From assembly GCF_030013205.1 (NCBI RefSeq), contig NZ_CP122648.1: a stretch of 64,000 bases of DNA. One strand, 5' to 3'. The notes beneath the pieces were generated by a model. The model ran no database searches, was not told the origin of the DNA, and saw only the letters and a list, made by a program, of their open reading frames with translations. Source of the DNA: Escherichia coli. GTDB taxonomy: Bacteria; Pseudomonadota; Gammaproteobacteria; Enterobacterales; Enterobacteriaceae. The translations under genes were made by a program, and so were the position numbers. This document shows positions 31,976 through 52,293 of the stretch, one piece after another. Within the stretch, counting starts at the first letter, position 1; each line of letters opens with the position of its first letter.

Positions 31976-32063
31976 GGAAGTGTGGCCGAGCGGTTGAAGG
32001 CACCGGTCTTGAAAACCGGCGACCCGAAAGGGTTCCAGAGTTCGAATCTCTGCGCTTCCGCCA
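31976..32063 (+). tRNA. serT: tRNA-Ser (anticodon UGA)
   Basis: GGAAGTGTGGCCGAGCGGTTGAAGGCACCGGTCTTGAAAACCGG...CGCTTCCGCCA, long variable arm, CCA encoded; 3' half lies in prophage att core. Confidence 0.95.
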
Positions 32064-32511: not shown

Positions 32512-32878
32512 TTACATTGTGTCTGGTTCTTCCGGCCACACAATATCCGGTGCTACTGATGTATCAACACGGTTCAGCAACACCCGATACTTTTTCCAGG
32601 CTTCCAGCAACGAGTTTTCTTCCTCCGTTGCGATCTCCAGATCTACAGCATCCTGAAGTGGCGCAATATGCTCACTGGCTACCTGCATCAGGCTGTTTTT
32701 TGTTTCTTCCGCCTCCCGGATCCGGAACAGTTTTTCTGCTTCTGCATCTTTCACCCAGGCTGTGCCGTTCCACTTCTGAAACTCCCCTTCCGGCGATAAC
32801 CAGGTAACATTTTCCGGTAACGGACCGAGTTCAGAAATAAATAACGCGTCCCCTGACGCTACGTCATAAACCGTTTTG
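32512..32878 (-). pseudogene. Tail fibre assembly protein (Tfa) C-terminal remnant
   Basis: ...[57 protein letters not shown]...[18 protein letters not shown] matches recalled Tfa family; N-terminus missing, fused at a deletion to stf remnant. Confidence 0.75.
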
Positions 32879-45702: not shown

Positions 45703-45736
45703 TAAAATTTCCTCCCGGTAAAAATTACTTCTCAAC

Positions 45737-46402
45737 TCAAACAAAACCAGCCGCTTTCCGGCGTTCATATTCCTGTTTCAGCAACTCAATTGGCGTTGGT
45801 CCCGACGGGTGTTTGGGTGCCGCCAGTTGTCGCCGGACTGGCGGAATGCTCAGGCCATTACCAACATGCTTTGCCCATTTCGTCAGTTGCCATTCTGCAA
45901 GCCGTTTTAACTCCCCTTCGGTCATCTGGCGCTCAATCCCCTTTGAACGCATCTCGAGGCAAATGTGATACAGCACAGGCTGAGACCACGGGTACTTATC
46001 ACTTCCGTCGTATCGCCAGGACTCATTGCGCCAGCGGCGGTACTCCTCCATCACAGCATCCACCGTCAGACCAAATGGATTGGCTCCGCTTTCCGAAATC
46101 AGCGCCACAAACTCAGCCAGGTCCGGAGGCCATGTTTCACCCGCCCGGCAGCGGTCCATGCACTGGCGGCAGACCTGCCGGATTTGCTGCTCAGTCATCG
46201 CGCCAATCTGTGCAATCCAGAGCTTCGAAGGTGCGGCCCCGTTCTTCTGGGTCCAGCGGTTCGAATAAACCTCCCCCATGAGTTCCCACAGCTTCCAGGC
46301 CGTTTCCGTCGCTGATAAATCCGTTTTCACGTTCCCACTGCTCACGTGCTGCCCGAATTTCCTGAACTGCTCGTGATGCGGTGCCACCTGGTGCTGCTGC
46401 AT
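45737..46402 (-). CDS. Lambda P-like replication protein (helicase loader)
   Basis: C-terminal half resembles recalled lambda P (DKYPWSQPVLYHICLEM..., ...ELLKQEYERRKAAG); N-terminal extent uncertain because the ORF overlaps the upstream gene. Confidence 0.5.
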   Translation of the reverse strand: MQQHQVAPHHEQFRKFGQHVSSGNVKTDLSATETAWKLWELMGEVYSNRWTQKNGAAPSKLWIAQIGAMTEQQIRQVCRQCMDRCRAGETWPPDLAEFVALISESGANPFGLTVDAVMEEYRRWRNESWRYDGSDKYPWSQPVLYHICLEMRSKGIERQMTEGELKRLAEWQLTKWAKHVGNGLSIPPVRRQLAAPKHPSGPTPIELLKQEYERRKAAGFV

Positions 46403-46652
46403 GGTTTACCCCCTTGCTGACTGGTTTAACCTGCGCCCTGACGTGATTTACGTGACGGGCGAATTTCTGCTCCCACTGAATCTGCGTGAACACTTTCCCC
46501 TCCGCTGCCCAGTAGTCCCGGAAGGCTGCAAATTCAGCTGGTGTAAATTCCGGCTCAGGCAGAGCCACTCCCCACAGAGCAGCCCGTCGTCGAAAATCCG
46601 GCGACGGATGCCAGCCATCGGTCATCGGAAATTTCCCGATGGGTTCGCTCAT
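46191..46652 (-). CDS. DnaT-domain-like replication protein, apparently N-terminally truncated
   Basis: KFPMTDGWHPSPDFRRRAALWGVALPEP...; starts with this segment directly and overlaps the P-like ORF in another frame. Confidence 0.45.
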   Translation of the reverse strand: MSEPIGKFPMTDGWHPSPDFRRRAALWGVALPEPEFTPAEFAAFRDYWAAEGKVFTQIQWEQKFARHVNHVRAQVKPVSKGVNHAAAPGGTASRAVQEIRAAREQWERENGFISDGNGLEAVGTHGGGLFEPLDPEERGRTFEALDCTDWRDD

Positions 46653-46691
46653 GCCGTCCAGATAAGCGAAGCAGCACCGCGAGGAATCAGT

Positions 46692-46910
46692 ATGCAGAAA
46701 CGAGAACCCGTCATCATCGCGCCAGACTATACCGATGATGAACTTTATGAGTGGATGCGCCAGAAAATTAATGCAGCGCAGGATCTGAAATGGGCCAATG
46801 AAGCCAGGGCTAAGCAGGCTGAAAATCTGTCCGCTCTGGAGCAGGATATCACCAGGCTGGAAAAAGCAGCGGCATTAAGCATTGCCAGAATGATTTCATA
46901 CCCGCGTTAA
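46692..46910 (+). CDS. Hypothetical small protein
   Basis: 72 aa ORF MQKREPVIIAPDYTDDELYEWMRQ... with GAGGAA RBS 6 nt upstream; opposite strand to the replication genes. Confidence 0.4.
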   Translation: MQKREPVIIAPDYTDDELYEWMRQKINAAQDLKWANEARAKQAENLSALEQDITRLEKAAALSIARMISYPR

Positions 46911-47045
46911 TAGCTAACCAACGAAGCTAAGGTTGGTAATTAAGGAGTTCTCCACGGGTCAGGTGGAGTGCGTGCGCCGGACACGGGTGAGCATCCGGTA
47001 CGTTCTTTAAAAATCTGGATAGTCCCAACTTATTTAAACGGTTAA

Positions 47046-47606
47046 TTATCTTGAGTTCATCCAGAACTTATTATTGCAAGCGGGGCAAAAAGTACGAAAA
47101 TGAGCATCAAAGCGCATTATTTCCATTGGCTGAAGTACAGATATTACCTTTTTTCCAAAACATTGTGGGCAAAGATACACAGTTATCTCAGTATCGCCTA
47201 TAAATTGCTTCTTGGAATATACAAGGGTTCCAGAATCAAGCTTGTTAAGCTTGTAACCTTCCGCCTGTCGCTGAAAATCTTCTGTCTCTGCAATTTTTGC
47301 TTTGAGATGCATTATCTCTTCATCACGAAAGCGGATCGCATCGCAAAGAGAGAAGCATTCCGCCTGAAGCGTGATTAGTTTGTTCTGAAGTTCAATAGTT
47401 GCGGCTTTAACTTCTGCATCCGTTTTTGCGTCATTAATAACCTTAGCGAGACCAGCTGTCTCCTTTATCGCAGCCATAGCCGCTGACAGTTCTGCTATCA
47501 CGTTGAGTACTCTTCTCGTTGTTGGGGATATCCGGATTATACAAATTTCTTGTTGTTGGGGAATAACAGGAACCACCTCGCCTGACGTGGTTAAAAGCAG
47601 GCACAC
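47046..47606 (-). CDS. Coiled-coil protein with C-terminal zinc ribbon
   Basis: ...DAEVKAATIELQNKLITLQAEC... then CPQC-x26-CPAC; likely start at MAAIKETAGL (47478); no helix-turn-helix evident. Confidence 0.5.
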   Translation of the reverse strand: MCLLLTTSGEVVPVIPQQQEICIIRISPTTRRVLNVIAELSAAMAAIKETAGLAKVINDAKTDAEVKAATIELQNKLITLQAECFSLCDAIRFRDEEIMHLKAKIAETEDFQRQAEGYKLNKLDSGTLVYSKKQFIGDTEITVYLCPQCFGKKVISVLQPMEIMRFDAHFRTFCPACNNKFWMNSR

Positions 47607-47692
47607 AACGCGAAAGCGTACGGCGAGGTAGCTGGTTCATAGATAGCCTGTCGTTAAATTTTCGTCGACCGTGCACTTCCGGTTGTGGCAAT

Positions 47693-47863
47693 CCGCGAAA
47701 TGGCGCGGCGGTAAGTATGGCTGGGTTATCCTTACCCCATTAGTGGCACCGGGTTGTCAGGTTGACCATACGCTTAAGTGACAACCCCGCTGCAACAACC
47801 CATGTTGATTACCTTTTGGCGGGTATCCGTTTTTTGTTTTCCCTTGTGATACCCGCCCTTTTT
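47693..47863 (+). ncRNA. Candidate structured RNA or leader: four consecutive hairpins ending in an intrinsic terminator
   Basis: Hairpins at 47693-47708, 47710-47736, 47750-47789, then terminator 47818-47863 (GGCGGGTATC...GATACCCGCC + CTTTTT). Confidence 0.35.
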
Positions 47864-47868
47864 AAAGT

Positions 47869-48028
47869 GAATTTTGTGATGCGGTGAATGCGGCTCAGCG
47901 CACGCGGAACAGTTAAAAAGGCCAGTTGACTTCCGTATTGGTTCTTATGGGTGGGTTCTCTGTATCCGGCGTTAATTATTAACTGGTTAACGTCACCTGG
48001 AGGCACCAGGCACCGCATCACAAAATTC
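47869..48028. promoter_or_regulatory. 18-bp perfect inverted repeat arms flanking 124 bp, upstream of the plus-strand early genes
   Basis: GAATTTTGTGATGCGGTG at 47869-47886 and exact reverse complement CACCGCATCACAAAATTC at 48011-48028. Confidence 0.5.
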
Positions 48029-48046
48029 ATTGTTGAGGATGCGATA

Positions 48047-48229
48047 ATGGAAACGTTATTACCAAACGTCAATACGTCTGAAGGTTGTTTTGAAATTGGT
48101 GTCAGAATCAGTAACCCTGTATTTACTGAAGATGCCATTAATAAGAGAAAACACGAACGGGAGCTATTAAATCAAATATGCATTGTTTCAATGCTGGCCC
48201 GTTTACGCCTGATGCAAAAAGGACGATGA
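48047..48229 (+). CDS. Hypothetical small protein, first gene after the inverted repeat
   Basis: METLLPNVNTSEGCFEIGVRISNPVF...; RBS GAGGA upstream. Confidence 0.35.
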   Translation: METLLPNVNTSEGCFEIGVRISNPVFTEDAINKRKHERELLNQICIVSMLARLRLMQKGR

Positions 48230-48435
48230 CAATGAATACAGTATTTGCACTCGTTCTGACGGTTTTTCTTAATACAGGCGAGCCAGTCGATCTTGTTATT
48301 GGTATACATGACTCAATGAAAGAATGCATGGCTGCCGCAGCGGAACAGAAAATTCCCGGCAACTGTTATCCGGTTGATAAAGTTATTCGCATGGACAATA
48401 ACGAAATCCCGGCAGGACTTAAAACAGCACCGTAA
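48226..48435 (+). CDS. Hypothetical small protein with hydrophobic N-terminus
   Basis: MTMNTVFALVLTVFLNTGEPVDLVIG...; RBS AAGGA. Confidence 0.4.
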   Translation: MTMNTVFALVLTVFLNTGEPVDLVIGIHDSMKECMAAAAEQKIPGNCYPVDKVIRMDNNEIPAGLKTAP

Positions 48436-48515
48436 TTAATATCCGGTTTCATTTTTATATGCCAGCAATGGCAGGGATTTGTTCACCCTTAAATCTGTAA
48501 TGAGGTTAAAACAAA

Positions 48516-48740
48516 ATGAGTAAAGTCTTTATTTGCGCCGCCATTCCGGACGAACAGGCAATAAAGGAAGAAGGTGCAGTCGCTGTAGCCACTGCCATTG
48601 AAGCCGGCGACGAACGCCGCGCCCGAGCCAAATTTACCTGGCAATTCCTGGAGCAATATCCGGCTGCTCAGGACTGCGCTTATAAATTTCTTGTTTGCGA
48701 GGATAAACCCGGCATGCCCCGCCCTGCCATCGACTCCTAG
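48516..48740 (+). CDS. Hypothetical prophage protein
   Basis: 74 aa ORF MSKVFICAAIPDEQAIKEEG... Confidence 0.4.
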   Translation: MSKVFICAAIPDEQAIKEEGAVAVATAIEAGDERRARAKFTWQFLEQYPAAQDCAYKFLVCEDKPGMPRPAIDS

Positions 48741-48752
48741 GATACCGAATAT

Positions 48753-50987
48753 ATGCAGGAAAACTGCTGGGATGAGGAATCCGCTTCCTTTATTCCGGTC
48801 GAACCAGAATCCGATCCGATGAACGTCAATTTTGACAAGCTGTCCCCTGAAGTACAGAACGCGGTCCTGGTTAAGTTCGACACATGTGAAAACATCACCG
48901 TTGATATGGTTATTAGCGCACAGGAATTGTTGCAGGAAGACATGGCAACATTCGACGGACATATCGTTGAAGCGTTGATGAAAATGCCAGAAGTTAACGC
49001 CATGTATCCGGAGCTTAAGTTGCACGCCATTGGGTGGGTTAAGCATAAATGTATTCCTGGTGCTAAATGGCCCGAAATTCAGGCAGAGATGCGCATCTGG
49101 AAAAAACGTCGCGAAGGTGAACGCAAGGAAACCGGAAAATACACGTCTGTTGTTGATCTCGCCCGCGCCAGAGCCAATCAACAGTACACTGACAATTCAA
49201 CAGGAAAAATCAGCCCGGTCATTGCTGCCACTCATCGCGAATACAAGCAGACATGGAAAACACTGGATGACGAACTGGCCTACGCTCTCTGGCCTGGTGA
49301 TGTGGATGCCGGAAACATTGACGGCAGCATCCATCGCTGGGCAAAAAATGAAGTTATCGACAACGACCGCGAAGACTGGAAGCGTATCTCGGCATCAATG
49401 CGCAAACAGCCTGATGCCCTTCGCTACGACCGCCAGACTATTTTTGGCCTTGTCCGTGAACGTCCGATCGACATTCACAAAGACCCTGTGGCACTGAACA
49501 AATACATTACTGAATACCTGACTACAAAGGGCGTGTTTGAAGATGAAGGAAGAAATCAGAGCGCAACTGATACTCTCTCGTCGCCAGTACCAGAAACTGA
49601 TGCAGTGGAAACGGCAATTCCGGACAACGAAAAAACCGAATGCAAAGTGGAAGTCGAACCATCTGTAGAGCGTGAGGGGCCGTTCTACTTCCTCTTCACC
49701 GACAAGGATGGCGAAAAATATGGTCGCGCAAACAAACTTTCTGGTCTGAATAAGGCGCTGACTGCAGGGGCTACTGAAATCACGAAAGAAGAATATTTTG
49801 CCCGTAAAAACGGTACATACTCAGGTTCACAACAAAATACTGGTGCATCTGACACGACCGCACAACCAGAGCCGGTAAAAGTTACCGCTGACGAAGTAAA
49901 CAAAATTATGCAGGCAGCCAATATCAGCCAGCCTGACGCCGATAAGTTGCTTGCTGTATCACGTGGTGAATTTGTTGCAGGGATTAGCGACCCGAATGAT
50001 CCGAAATGGGTGAAGGGGATTGAAACCCGCGATTCAGTGAATCAGAACCAGCAAGAAACGGAACAGAACGACCAGAAAGCGGAACAAAACAGCCCAAATG
50101 CGTTACAAAACGAGCCAGAAACGAAACAACCTGAGCCAGTAGCGCAACAGGAAGCGGAAAAAGTCTGCACCGCCTGCGGTCAGACCGGCGGCGGCAACTG
50201 CCCTGATTGTGGTGCGGTGATGGGCGACGCAACATACCAAGAAACATTCGATGACAAGAACCAGGTTGAAGTTCAGGAAGACGATTCGGAGAAAATGGAA
50301 GGCGCTGAACATCCACACAAAGAGAATGCTGGCAGCGCTCAGGATCACGCCAGCGATAGTGAAACTGGCGAGACGGCAGATCCCTTAATTACGGTGAACG
50401 GTCATCACGTTATCACATCCACCAGCAGGACGTGTGACCATCTAATGATCGACCTTGAAACCATGGGAAAAAATCCTGATGCCCCGATTATCTCAATAGG
50501 TGCAATATTTTTCGATCCGCAAACCGGAGATATGGGACCGGAATTTAGTAAGACTATCGATCTGGAAACTGCTGGCGGAGTCATTGATCGGGACACCATT
50601 AAATGGTGGCTTAAGCAATCACGCGAAGCGCAATCTGCCATTATGACCGATGAAATCCCGTTAGATGATGCACTGTTACAATTGCGGGAATTTATCGACG
50701 AAAACTCCGGTGAATTTTTTGTTCAGGTCTGGGGAAATGGAGCCAACTTCGACAACACGATTTTGCGCCGTTCATACGAACGGCAGGGGATCCCCTGCCC
50801 GTGGCGTTACTACAACGATCGCGATGTACGCACAATCGTTGAGCTGGGGAAAGCCATAGACTTCGATGCCAGAACGGCTATTCCATTCGAAGGTGAGCGC
50901 CATAATGCACTTGATGACGCCCGTTACCAGGCAAAATACGTTTCAGCAATCTGGCAAAAACTGATCCCGAATCCGGTTGATTTTTAA
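48753..50987 (+). CDS. Prophage exonuclease with C-terminal DEDDh 3'-5' exonuclease domain
   Basis: C-terminus MIDLETMG...ISIGAIFF...WGNGANFD...HNALDDARYQAKY; long acidic Gln/Glu-rich linker and CTACGQTGGGNCPDCG zinc-ribbon-like segment upstream. Confidence 0.7.
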   Translation: MQENCWDEESASFIPVEPESDPMNVNFDKLSPEVQNAVLVKFDTCENITVDMVISAQELLQEDMATFDGHIVEALMKMPEVNAMYPELKLHAIGWVKHKCIPGAKWPEIQAEMRIWKKRREGERKETGKYTSVVDLARARANQQYTDNSTGKISPVIAATHREYKQTWKTLDDELAYALWPGDVDAGNIDGSIHRWAKNEVIDNDREDWKRISASMRKQPDALRYDRQTIFGLVRERPIDIHKDPVALNKYITEYLTTKGVFEDEGRNQSATDTLSSPVPETDAVETAIPDNEKTECKVEVEPSVEREGPFYFLFTDKDGEKYGRANKLSGLNKALTAGATEITKEEYFARKNGTYSGSQQNTGASDTTAQPEPVKVTADEVNKIMQAANISQPDADKLLAVSRGEFVAGISDPNDPKWVKGIETRDSVNQNQQETEQNDQKAEQNSPNALQNEPETKQPEPVAQQEAEKVCTACGQTGGGNCPDCGAVMGDATYQETFDDKNQVEVQEDDSEKMEGAEHPHKENAGSAQDHASDSETGETADPLITVNGHHVITSTSRTCDHLMIDLETMGKNPDAPIISIGAIFFDPQTGDMGPEFSKTIDLETAGGVIDRDTIKWWLKQSREAQSAIMTDEIPLDDALLQLREFIDENSGEFFVQVWGNGANFDNTILRRSYERQGIPCPWRYYNDRDVRTIVELGKAIDFDARTAIPFEGERHNALDDARYQAKYVSAIWQKLIPNPVDF

Positions 50988-51053
50988 TGTTCAACCCTGA
51001 TCGCCGTCCCCGAATTATATTGGCGGCGGTCATGCTGTAAGGCACGTGACCAC

Positions 51054-51305
51054 ATGTACGAATTAACTCTATCGCCAGCAGAGATTCAAGAGATCACGAA
51101 ATACGAGCGATACACAAAACAGCAACACCAGTTAAGGCTGCACGGTATCCCATTTGTAATCGGTCCTAAAAACGAACCAATAGTTCTTCGCAGGGATATT
51201 CCACACGGACTGACTACGATGCCAAAAGCACCTGAACTGGTTTCCGCTGAACCCGATTTTGAGGCGCTGAACAATGGGAAGACCAAGAAAAAACAAAAAA
51301 GATAA
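51054..51305 (+). CDS. Putative excisionase
   Basis: 83 aa ORF immediately upstream of and overlapping the integrase; call is positional. Confidence 0.45.
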   Translation: MYELTLSPAEIQEITKYERYTKQQHQLRLHGIPFVIGPKNEPIVLRRDIPHGLTTMPKAPELVSAEPDFEALNNGKTKKKQKR

Positions 51306-52293
51306 TGCACTACCACCGCGTGTTAGATCGAATGGTTACAGTTACGTATGGAAACCCGAAGGAAGCACAAGAACTATAGGGCTCGGAAGAGTGCGGGAAA
51401 CCAGCGTAGCTAAAGTCTGGCAAAATTATGAGCTGGAAAAAGCAAAACTCCACAACATAATGACAGTAGCTAAATTATGGCACATGTTTATGGACTCCCC
51501 TGCATTTACAGAACTGGCCCCCCGAACCCAAAAAGATTATCGGCAACATCAAAGGGCATTGTTGGCAGTATTCGGAAAAGTGCTTGCTGATAATGTAAAA
51601 ATTGAACAGGTAAGAATTTTCATGGATAAGCGAGGACTTGAGAGCAAGACCCAAGCAAACCATGAACTGGCAAGTCTGAGCCGTGTATACGGATGGGGAT
51701 ATGAGCGTGGGTATGTGAAAAATAATCCATGCAAAGGAGTCAGAAAATTCACACTTAAAGCCCGTACTGTTTACATCACCGATGAACAGTATGCTGCAAT
51801 ATATGCGGAAGCAATTCCACAGTTACGTATTGCAATGGAGATATCCTATCTTTGTGCGGCAAGGCTCGGTGATGTACTCGAGCTGAAATGGCAGGATATT
51901 ATGGAGAAAGGGATTTACATTGAGCAAAACAAGACCGGCACTAAACAAATCAAGGAATGGTCTCCGCGATTACGTACGGCGATCCAGTTAGCCCGAAATG
52001 TATCTTCCGGCACATGCGAGTATGTGATCAACACAACCAAAGGCGGGAAGGTAATAGCCAAGACGCTGAACAACTGGTGGAATCAGGCTAAACGTGCAGC
52101 CGAGCAAAAAGCCGGCGTTCCGTTTGGGTGCAACTTCCATGACATAAAAGCCAAAGGGATTTCACATTACGAAGGCAGCAGTCGCGACAAACAAATTTTC
52201 AGTGGACACAAAACAGAAAATCAGGTGTTGATTTACGATCGTAAAACCAAAATAACACCAACACTGGATTTGCCGCTTGTGGTCAGTAAGTAG
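51274..52293 (+). CDS. int: Phage tyrosine integrase
   Basis: 339 aa ORF 140 bp from the att core; C-terminal region with candidate catalytic residues (ARLGDVLELKWQDI; HDIKAKGISHYEG...LIYDR). Confidence 0.8.
   Translation: MGRPRKNKKDNALPPRVRSNGYSYVWKPEGSTRTIGLGRVRETSVAKVWQNYELEKAKLHNIMTVAKLWHMFMDSPAFTELAPRTQKDYRQHQRALLAVFGKVLADNVKIEQVRIFMDKRGLESKTQANHELASLSRVYGWGYERGYVKNNPCKGVRKFTLKARTVYITDEQYAAIYAEAIPQLRIAMEISYLCAARLGDVLELKWQDIMEKGIYIEQNKTGTKQIKEWSPRLRTAIQLARNVSSGTCEYVINTTKGGKVIAKTLNNWWNQAKRAAEQKAGVPFGCNFHDIKAKGISHYEGSSRDKQIFSGHKTENQVLIYDRKTKITPTLDLPLVVSK

Follow-up and report, generated by a model that had tools for sequence, protein, structure and literature searches.

The stretch from 47607 to 48046 is very probably a transcribed spacer within the leftward early (PL-type) operon of a Qin/Rac-type lambdoid prophage, an RNA-processing stretch and not an operator. 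It lies in a 64,000-nt window of an Escherichia coli genome (GCF_030013205.1, contig NZ_CP122648.1), and its flanks are approximately 95% identical to the ydfC-dicF-dicB intergenic region of the E. coli K-12 prophage Qin and of phage Tritos. On this reading, the prophage harbours no unusual genetic switch: the spacer belongs to a known RNA-processing type, the prophage is decayed, and its conventional switch has been deleted, so that a false lead is avoided.

Operon context and the deleted immunity region

By alignment, the flanks of the DicF slot are near-identical to those of K-12 Qin and Tritos, and the RefSeq annotation of this locus has ydfC, dicB and a DUF1482 gene in matching order. On the plus strand, ydfC (46692..46910; RefSeq on the identical locus, 97% identity by tblastn with K-12 YdfC) precedes the spacer, and dicB, a cell-division inhibitor gene (48047..48229; RefSeq, 91.5% identity to K-12 DicB), follows it, with a Shine-Dalgarno sequence, GAGGA, read at 48035..48039, 3 nt past the end of a 21-bp helix. 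A ydfD-like gene of the DUF1482 family (48232..48435, plus strand; RefSeq) comes next, then exonuclease, excisionase and integrase genes, which is the order of a dicBF-type operon. In intact phages the arrangement is O-cII-cro / cI, ydf genes, dicF, dicB, ydfD, exo, xis and int, and the operon proposed here would run ydfA-ydfB-ydfC, small RNA, dicB-ydfD-exo-xis-int. In operons of this type, ydfC is the last protein gene 5' of the small-RNA precursor. The dicF-dicB segment of the cryptic prophage Qin of K-12 was reportedly treated by Faubladier et al. in 1990. The same segment is the subject of Balasubramanian et al. 2016 and Ragunathan et al. 2023.

As the first-pass annotation had noted, the roughly 440 bp of the spacer contain no convincing ORF, and RefSeq calls none there. 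A hidden spacer ORF was considered and rejected, as the variable arms contain indels whose lengths are not divisible by three. The spacer of two phage records carries an annotated 51-aa minus-strand ORF, which is considered spurious.

The minus-strand gene placed at 47046-47606 exists, but its proposed length of 186 aa was too great: RefSeq gives 151 aa (47046..47501), and the product belongs to phrog_1244, a family of unknown function (E 1.3e-51). This protein has a coiled coil towards its N terminus and a CxxC...CxxC zinc ribbon at its C-terminal end, with no PADLOC (defence-system) match and no Pfam match at E <= 0.001. Inserted between ydfC and the small-RNA precursor, its gene replaces 43 bp of K-12/Tritos sequence, and homologues occupy the same slot in the loci L107, L075 and L010. 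Distant homologues include hkaP of HK620 and genes of Pseudomonas phages, and phrog_1244 turns up in numerous phage settings that are unrelated to one another. The zinc-ribbon ORF is an accessory gene that phages carry repeatedly, and nothing ties it to regulation. A putative extended -10 element for it, TGTATAAT (47536..47543, minus strand), was read from the sequence and is not called by the consensus scanner. The junction of the inserted gene and the conserved precursor is marked by a recurrent boundary module, ACCACCTCGCCTGACGTGGTTAAAAGCAGGCAC (47571..47603, plus strand), which also lies 5' of the precursor in other loci (L006, L009, L010, L046, L069 and others) and upstream of ydfC in phage 640R1.

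The absence of a nearby helix-turn-helix repressor, remarked on earlier, was confirmed by tblastn with seven repressor/Cro-type queries (DicA, mEp460 C2, two cI, two DicC, Tritos and mEp460 Cro), which found no homologue in the whole 64-kb window. It is explained by a lineage-specific deletion. The intact sibling L107 aligns with the window by blastn in two blocks of 99.9-99.97% identity that abut at a GATA microhomology (46661..46664, no strand), showing that a clean deletion has cost the window 2,561 bp; 46661 is where homology to K-12 and Tritos begins. The genes lost comprise the N-terminal half of an O-like replication gene, a CII-like gene (matching phrog_163 in L107), a Cro-like gene (phrog_35), a RacR-type repressor (RacR match 244.6 bits, curated cut-off 200), ydfA and ydfB. 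Other loci with the same small-RNA variant carry DicA/C2-type and DicC/Cro-type genes upstream. The suggestion of an unusual, RNA- or zinc-ribbon-based regulatory logic is not supported, given the conventional RacR-type repressor, Cro-like and CII-like genes that the sibling retains and this prophage has lost. An early promoter repressed by an adjacent helix-turn-helix repressor, with a divergent cro-like gene, was likewise not found in the window.

Further signs of prophage decay include an IS1 insertion, truncated tail genes, and frameshifted exonuclease and integrase genes. The deletion would have removed the early promoter along with the immunity genes, so the operon has probably lost its native promoter, and with it, presumably, its expression. 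A consensus scanner found no plus-strand sigma-70-like promoter in 44000-48500, and the spacer may therefore not be transcribed at all in this prophage.

The precursor and the small RNA in the DicF slot

The 5' part of the spacer begins with helix P0, a long irregular plus-strand stem (47611..47681; strands 47611-47626 / 47665-47681) with a variable apical part, delineated by the consensus fold of 84 unique homologues, per-module folds and K-12 mapping. In this copy, two changes, C>T at 47619 and G>A at 47675, weaken P0, which is absent from the minimum-energy fold. A three-hairpin domain follows on the plus strand (47682..47796), defined by inverted repeats and folds, closed by the helix 47682-47688 / 47790-47796 and nearly identical in K-12 and Tritos. 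The three consecutive hairpins first placed at 47693-47789 are present, at 47693-47708, 47710-47736 (a variable cassette) and 47751-47787. The block 47670-47866 is not significantly stabler than its shuffles (z = -1.6), and among the 84 homologues about as many positions carry pair-keeping as pair-breaking changes. An antitermination RNA of the nut or put type was also considered for the hairpins and set aside, with no specific evidence for it and the repeat-bounded domain situated downstream of the terminator.

According to the account in PMC10448788, the equivalent stretch of K-12 is a 190-nt DicF precursor ending at the DicF terminator. Counting 190 nt back from the DicF 3' end leads to the 3' strand of helix P0; this end, like that of a 72-nt species considered below, was mapped through secondary citations of the original work and carries gel-size uncertainty. 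By analogy, RNase III would act on P0 here, its cut at about 47676-47680 generating the 5' end of the long (190-nt-type) precursor.

The small RNA ends in a plus-strand terminator hairpin with a U tract (47818..47863), recognised from its inverted repeat, its fold and its alignment to the DicF terminator, with which it is homologous in position. The earlier description of a canonical intrinsic terminator holds: a 10-bp G+C-rich stem (47818-47827 / 47848-47857) with seven G-C pairs runs directly into CTTTTT, although the U-rich loop of 20 nt is atypically long, which is why the consensus scanner returned just an inner sub-hairpin. The alternative of a small structured RNA ending at this terminator was essentially right, the stretch being a homologue of the DicF precursor.

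Situated between ydfC and dicB, 3' of the conserved hairpins and ending at an intrinsic terminator, the sequence has the location of DicF; the slot nevertheless holds an undescribed small-RNA variant that is not DicF. The Rfam DicF model (RF00039, gathering threshold 48 bits) gives no match at E <= 10 in 47000-48400 or 47775-47875, compared with 76.7 bits for the K-12 control and 72.5 bits for Tritos. The DicF 5' region UUUCUGGUGACGUUU is replaced by the segment CAACCCAUGUUGAUUACCUUUU (47796..47817, plus strand), a candidate seed, and a small hairpin (47793-47807) lies within the variant 5' region. By duplex energy, a crude measure that ignores intramolecular structure, the variant shows no particular complementarity to the ftsZ ribosome-binding region: it scores -26.6 kcal/mol against the ftsZ translation start, with 41-77% of shuffled targets as good, versus -38.5 kcal/mol and 2.7% for the DicF control. 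A target search across 2.49 Mb of phage loci returned only self-antisense matches, and a literature search with the seed as a sequence string returned only unrelated papers. Sites complementary to the 5' segment CCAUGUUGAUUACCUUUU would be AAAAGGUAAUCAACAUGG-like.

The DicF slot may be an exchangeable small-RNA cassette, with a fixed scaffold (P0, the three hairpins, the terminator base and the 21-bp helix) into which 5' seeds and terminator loops are swapped, and the allele CAACCCAUGUUGAUUACCUUUU may be a functional, undescribed Hfq-type small RNA whose targets are unlike those of DicF and do not include ftsZ. This reading is put forward tentatively, its chances being judged a little under even. 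Across six alleles, a 24-nt 5' segment (47796-47819) shows 0-1 differences, compared with 7-16 differing alignment positions in the interiors of their terminators, and the DicF-type seed likewise combines a constant seed with a swappable terminator. Of 5,426 complete E. coli genomes, 203 (about 4%) carry the variant, among them O121, other Shiga-toxin-producing and porcine enterotoxigenic strains, and it is never annotated. Its different, conserved 5' segment suggests that its targets are probably not those of DicF.

It is unlikely, if deserving of serious weight, that the slot instead contains a decayed, non-functional dicF remnant, a small-RNA pseudogene. The decay of the host prophage, the empty target searches (ftsZ start and phage loci) and the lack of any annotation of the sequence would fit such a remnant. 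However, the same allele is present in loci with intact repressor/cro modules as well as throughout those 203 genomes, a strong terminator and U tract are retained, and an invariant seed beside variable hairpin interiors, the pattern that the DicF-type seed shares, points to selection and not to drift.

DicF couples the expression of prophages to cell division and metabolism of the host and, in enterohaemorrhagic E. coli, to virulence. If the exchangeable-cassette reading is correct, a second conserved seed allele in the DicF scaffold would be a regulator that a few per cent of E. coli genomes carry and annotation pipelines miss, and phages would diversify their small-RNA targets through cassette exchange.

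The inverted repeat and the leader domain before dicB

Immediately downstream of the terminator lies a plus-strand multi-hairpin leader domain (47866..48031) closed by a 21-bp helix, supported by its fold, a below-threshold Rfam match to STnc100 and 48 homologues. The perfect inverted repeat reported earlier as 18 bp is real and slightly longer: its arms measure 19 nt (47868-47886 and 48011-48029), are separated by 124 nt, and reach 21 bp (47866-47886 / 48011-48031) when the terminal A-U and G-U pairs are counted. By estimate, a perfect 19-nt repeat would be expected by chance about 5e-7 times in 551 nt. Folding of the plus strand from 47864 to 48050 yields -72 kcal/mol (z = -4.9), a stability reached by none of 200 shuffles, and the palindrome GTTAAC, also noted in the first pass, forms part of the 3' strand of one of the domain's internal hairpins. 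The central arm (~47915-47965) is hypervariable and is replaced wholesale while the helix and the first hairpin stay conserved.

Across 48 unique homologues the helix is approximately 99.5-99.6% paired, with 41 sequence-by-pair cells changed on one side yet still paired through plus-strand wobble-compatible substitutions, and eight cells unpaired. Covariation of the stems or the repeat in related prophages, raised earlier as a sign of function, gave no significant signal in either the 48 leader or the 84 precursor homologues, as the sequences are too similar and the changes mostly one-sided. The RNA-level case rests for this reason on wobble bias, fold stability, islands of conservation and the K-12 experiments. 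With variants that are G-U wobbles on the plus strand, the inverted repeat has the behaviour of an RNA helix.

At 21 bp, kept in all 48 homologues, the helix has the approximately two turns (at least 20 bp) of an RNase III site. Accounts of K-12 in PMC5069750 and PMC9438474 describe a 72-nt DicF species whose 3' end is made by RNase III on the full-length mRNA. Adding 53 and 19 nt places this published cut at nucleotide 12 of the left arm of the helix. The corresponding cuts in this copy would fall at about 47877 and 48022.

These elements can be assembled into a processing model, all steps of which are transferred from K-12 by homology. RNase III would first cut P0 (~47611-47681), releasing a long precursor with the three hairpins, which RNase E would trim to a small RNA of about 55 nt ending at the 47818-47863 terminator. 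In read-through transcripts, the next 166 nt would fold into the multi-hairpin domain closed by the 21-bp helix, and RNase III cleavage of this helix would then part the small RNA from the dicB message, leaving a dicB leader of about 25 nt.

The leader domain appears to be distantly related to the prophage RNA STnc100 in sequence and predicted fold. It matches the Rfam STnc100 model (RF02076) at 33.5 bits (E 3.3e-5) over model positions 21-154 of 206, below the gathering threshold of 47 bits and without the 3' terminator hairpin, so full membership is not reached; the K-12 equivalent scores 34.4 bits, and true members score 73-208 bits. The core architecture is nonetheless present, with four hairpins inside a closing helix and the motif UCACCNGGAGGCACCNGGCACC, and a scan with this motif retrieves both dicB leaders and STnc100 elements. 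At gathering thresholds, Rfam reports only IS009, a cspA-type element and a tRNA in the window, all elsewhere.

This relationship raises the possibility that the 166-nt domain is mainly a cis-regulatory leader for dicB translation or stability, such as a thermosensor or standby-site gate, or an STnc100-type small RNA, which is considered improbable. The architecture and 21-nt motif common to STnc100, a helix that stops 3 nt 5' of the dicB Shine-Dalgarno sequence, and internal hairpins far more conserved than a bare RNase III stem needs all speak in its favour. Nevertheless, the STnc100 terminator is missing and the model is matched only in part, the domain has no promoter of its own (by the scanner, and in the account of PMC10448788), and STnc100 itself has no known function. 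This reading is, moreover, compatible with RNase III cleavage and does not exclude it.

The proposal that the region is an immunity or operator region, with an unconventional repressor (an RNA, or the zinc-ribbon protein encoded at 47046-47606) binding to the inverted repeat, is largely refuted and keeps a barely appreciable probability. The genes diverge on both sides, the repeat is long and perfect, and no helix-turn-helix gene is adjacent; yet the region is homologous to the ydfC-dicB intra-operon spacer, the internal spacer of a known operon, and the arms, with 124 nt between them, form the closing helix of a conserved RNA fold, and their G-U variants would be mismatches on the other strand. 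In addition, the true immunity region (RacR, Cro-like and CII-like genes), which the deletion has removed here, is found 1.5-2.5 kb upstream in the sibling that is intact, and the zinc-ribbon gene is missing from most homologous loci, which keep the repeat nonetheless. A search for the hallmarks of a CI/Cro operator turned up neither a promoter-like site on the plus strand nor a family of short operator-like repeats, and neither a repressor gene nor a cro gene. Equally implausible is a DNA-level element such as a MITE or recombination site inserted upstream of dicB, which the 19-21 bp terminal inverted repeats around a short non-coding segment and the multi-copy, sometimes tandem, occurrence of related STnc100 elements might suggest, but which is opposed by the lack of a target-site duplication (flanks TAA and GTT), by a position before dicB fixed in 48 of 48 unique homologous elements aligned, by the absence of an empty site among the loci examined, and by variants that keep RNA pairing.

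Comparison with known systems

Among the closest known systems is the dicBF operon of K-12 Qin, with which this locus shares the gene order ydfC, small RNA, dicB and ydfD, near-identical precursor hairpins, the terminator position, and the 21-bp helix and leader domain before dicB. The two loci differ in that the 53-nt DicF module of K-12 is swapped here for a non-DicF sequence, the interval from ydfC to the precursor has gained a phrog_1244 gene on the opposite strand, and the repressor, promoter, ydfA and ydfB are deleted. Furthermore, the repressor of the intact sibling is RacR-type and not DicA-type, and the central arm of the leader carries a distinct cassette, 14 nt longer.

With DicF (RF00039) itself, the variant small RNA has in common the operon slot, the upstream precursor and a layout in which a single-stranded 5' part leads into a GGCGG...CCGCC terminator hairpin with a U tail. 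It departs from DicF in lacking a covariance-model match, in its 5' segment (CCAUGUUGAUUACCUUUU instead of UUUCUGGUGACGUUU), and in the terminator loop, which in DicF is the part that pairs with ftsZ.

The STnc100/PasD family (RF02076; Zhu, Shabalina and Storz 2026 preprint) resembles the leader domain in its closing helix (GGUG...CACC), its order of internal hairpins and the motif UCACCNGGAGGCACCNGGCACC. The leader differs in its lack of the family's terminator hairpin, in a closing helix of 21 bp as against about 8 in STnc100, and in its placement in the early-left operon before dicB, whereas true STnc100 members in the loci examined lie beside tRNA genes and the AsxR/AgvB small RNAs, sometimes in tandem. 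Through its likeness to the dicF-dicB spacer, STnc100/PasD is linked to an RNase III site that has been mapped by experiment, which points to a function open to testing.

In the PL operon of phage lambda, host RNase III cuts a long RNA helix in the N leader, shortly before the ribosome-binding site. Both systems thus place a long helix just 5' of the ribosome-binding site of an early-left gene, with no sequence similarity between them, and the helix described here differs in that it would also make the 3' end of a small RNA.

The ydfC-dicF-dicB spacer and its lost immunity region

Alignment with the cryptic prophage Qin of Escherichia coli K-12 and with phage Tritos identified 47607-48046 as the ydfC-dicF-dicB spacer, whose flanks are near-identical. 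Chromosomes of porcine E. coli strains, K_EC180 among them, match the window at 100% identity, and the RefSeq annotation places a decayed lambdoid prophage between yccA and a tRNA-Ser gene adjoining hyaA. In this annotation, tail genes are truncated, an IS1 is inserted (about 38153-38850), and the genes for a 3'-5' exonuclease (48516-50986) and an integrase (51272-52290) are frameshifted, while a ParD/ParE toxin-antitoxin pair lies at about 42141-42703. Rfam located the tRNA-Ser gene that bounds the prophage on the left (31976-32060, plus strand), an IS009 RNA (32555-32753, minus strand, 223 bits), and a cspA-type thermoregulator 5' UTR (21009-21431, minus strand, 156 bits). At the region itself, RefSeq lists, in order, a truncated DnaT-like replication gene on the minus strand, ydfC on the plus, a hypothetical 151-aa gene on the minus, and then dicB and DUF1482/ydfD, both on the plus strand. 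Intact phages of the same type are arranged as O-cII-cro / cI - ydf genes - dicF - dicB - ydfD - exo - xis - int. Taken with the ydfC-dicF-dicB homology, this order indicates that the plus strand carries the early-left (PL-type) operon and that 47607-48046 lies inside it, rather than forming its control region. The variant locus of the E. coli type also turns up, at 92.8% identity, at 5840-6069 of PP818812.1 (Actinobacillus phage vB_Apl-pPE4), which is catalogued as a phage of Actinobacillus pleuropneumoniae; the match suggests that the prophage is E. coli-like or that its host was wrongly assigned.

The first-pass annotation, finding no CI/Cro-type gene nearby, had proposed an unusual regulatory logic. 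The absence itself was borne out: tblastn with seven repressor and Cro-type queries returned no repressor-like gene across the whole 64-kb window. The proposed logic was not, as comparison with L107, a sibling element of this prophage, makes clear. L107 1-3570 corresponds to 43095-46664 at 99.97% identity and L107 6132-11764 to 46661-52293 at 99.9%; because these blocks abut, the window lacks L107 3571-6131 (2,561 bp), and the deletion junction shows a GATA microhomology. Of the genes on the deleted piece, the CII-like activator matches phrog_163, the Cro-like regulator matches phrog_35, and the RacR-type repressor scores 244.6 bits with NCBIfam NF049929 (curated cut-off 200); the piece also holds ydfA, ydfB, and the N-terminal half of the replication initiator. 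Further loci that share the small-RNA allele of the window likewise carry DicA/C2-type and DicC/Cro-type genes upstream, so phages of this type have a conventional regulatory logic, which has been lost in the window. The operon promoter was probably lost together with the repressor region, and a scan of 44000-48500 gave no sigma-70-like site on the plus strand.

Probable RNase III helices around the small RNA

Repeat scanning and folding recovered the three hairpins (47693-47708, 47710-47736, and 47751-47787) and the terminator (10-bp stem, 47818-47827 / 47848-47857, followed by CTTTTT) described earlier. The hairpin block alone is not significantly more stable than its shuffles (z = -1.6). 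Downstream, the inverted repeat has perfect arms with the 124-nt spacing first described, each arm being 19 nt rather than 18 (47868-47886 / 48011-48029), and it grows to 21 bp (47866-47886 / 48011-48031) when one A-U and one G-U pair are counted. Folding of 47864-48050 as plus-strand RNA gave -72 kcal/mol (z = -4.9), a stability matched by none of 200 shuffles. Upstream of the hairpins, alignment and homologue folding revealed a long, irregular helix, P0 (47611-47626 / 47665-47681).

In K-12, DicF is excised from a polycistronic transcript starting at dicBp; a 190-nt species owes its 5' end to RNase III, a 53-nt species is made by RNase E, and no internal promoter was found for DicF (PMC10448788). 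According to passages in PMC5069750 and PMC9438474, both citing Faubladier et al. 1990, the 53-nt DicF ends at the intrinsic terminator, and RNase III makes a 72-nt species from read-through mRNA. By coordinate mapping, the 72-nt end given in those passages lies 19 nt beyond the annotated DicF end, within the 21-bp helix at nucleotide 12 of its left arm, and the position 190 nt before the DicF 3' end aligns with the 3' strand of P0. These mapped ends identify the inverted repeat as the helix that RNase III cuts beyond the small RNA in K-12, and the three hairpins plus terminator as the long precursor. The earlier suggestion of a small structured RNA ending at the terminator thus essentially holds, the RNA being a DicF-type precursor by K-12 homology. 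By analogy with K-12, RNase III would cut P0 near 47676-47680 and the 21-bp helix near 47877 and 48022, the last cut leaving a dicB leader of about 25 nt. The dicB Shine-Dalgarno sequence begins 3 nt past the helix end. Two substitutions, C>T at 47619 and G>A at 47675, weaken P0 and occur only in the window and L107 among 84 unique homologues; with both, the helix is gone from the minimum-energy fold.

About 240 related loci were gathered by two scans of viral contigs. Across 48 unique dicB-leader elements, the 21-bp helix is 99.5% paired, and changes are mostly G-C to G-U and C-G to U-G, plus one U-A, with 41 sequence-by-pair cells keeping pairing versus 8 unpaired; read on the opposite strand, the wobbles become mismatches. 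Formal covariation, proposed earlier as a check, reached no significance in the leader and precursor alignments because the sequences are too close, and in the upstream precursor neither strand was favoured when changes were counted by position. The helix is kept, as is the first internal hairpin, while the adjoining central arm (47915-47965, and the matching columns of the leader alignment) is a hypervariable cassette in which unrelated sequences of several types are swapped between invariant flanks, a pattern that points to selection on the helix and that hairpin. The central-arm type of the window is found together with the variant small-RNA allele. In two phage records, a 51-aa hypothetical protein is annotated on the minus strand within the structured leader (L244 3727-3882 and L245 3581-3736); most likely a non-coding RNA domain was miscalled as a gene.

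A variant allele in the DicF slot

The DicF slot of the window (about 47796-47863) holds a differing sequence, which the Rfam DicF model did not match even at E <= 10. Among the fetched loci, slots carry canonical DicF, the DicF 5' part joined to other terminators, the window allele (also noted at L075, L078, L096, L107, L023, L198, and L247-L251), or its relatives with other terminators. The 24-nt 5' segment of the window allele (47796-47819) shows 0-1 differences in six alleles, and the hairpin interiors differ at 7-16 alignment positions; an invariant segment amid varying terminator hairpins is, at the sequence level, a conserved-seed pattern. Predicted pairing with the ftsZ translation start was no better than chance for the variant and better than chance for DicF. 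The seed complement resembles a ribosome-binding site and start codon, and the fetched phage DNA yielded no seed partner. Opposite the seed, a 9-codon minus-strand mini-ORF (MGCCSGVVT, 47806-47777) with AAAGG upstream at good spacing, not present in the canonical DicF allele, is probably a coincidence, the seed complement being translation-start-like.

Among 5,426 complete E. coli genomes, 203 carry the variant (239 places), which none of them annotates; the canonical slot occurs in 3,974 (6,700 places). A literature search by sequence string found no paper printing the seed, and a published dicF-locus survey considered only copies >99% identical to dicF. The variant is apparently a selected, unannotated small-RNA allele, of modest interest.

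Neighbouring elements and known RNA families

The minus-strand gene (47046-47501 and 151 aa in RefSeq), once suspected of a zinc-ribbon regulatory role, belongs to phrog_1244 (unknown function, E 1.3e-51), has no PADLOC or Pfam match, and has distant homologues in HK620 hkaP and Pseudomonas phage genes. It replaces 43 bp of K-12 sequence, L107, L075, and L010 have homologues at the equivalent position, and a putative extended -10 lies at 47543-47536 (minus strand). These features suggest an accessory gene served by a putative promoter of its own; no evidence supports a link to the inverted repeat. Flanking it is a 33-nt module, ACCACCTCGCCTGACGTGGTTAAAAGCAGGCAC (47571-47603), which recurs in early-left operons at differing gene junctions, ahead of either the small-RNA precursor or ydfC (L006, L009, L010, L046, L069, and L245 about 3010-3045), and looks like a mosaic boundary or linker element.

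In the Rfam search, the spacer matched STnc100 below threshold (33.5 bits, E 3.3e-5, model positions 21-154; gathering threshold 47 bits), as did the K-12 and Tritos spacers. True copies score 73-208 bits and, in the loci examined, adjoin tRNA genes and AsxR/AgvB small RNAs, sometimes in tandem. Six copies occupy 3 kb beside tRNA genes at L182 4984-7937, with further arrays at L211 and L222, and at L124 and L129 an AsxR or AgvB small RNA directly adjoins a copy on the opposite strand. A 21-nt motif is common to the dicB leader type and true copies, and a motif scan retrieves both. The sub-threshold score and shared motif make the dicB leader a distant STnc100 relative, not a member by the Rfam criterion; unlike the family, it lacks the terminator. 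STnc100 is thereby tied to an experimentally mapped RNase III site, a connection of modest interest. The locus as a whole is explained by known biology, as a dicF/dicB RNA-processing spacer in a decayed Qin/Rac-type prophage.
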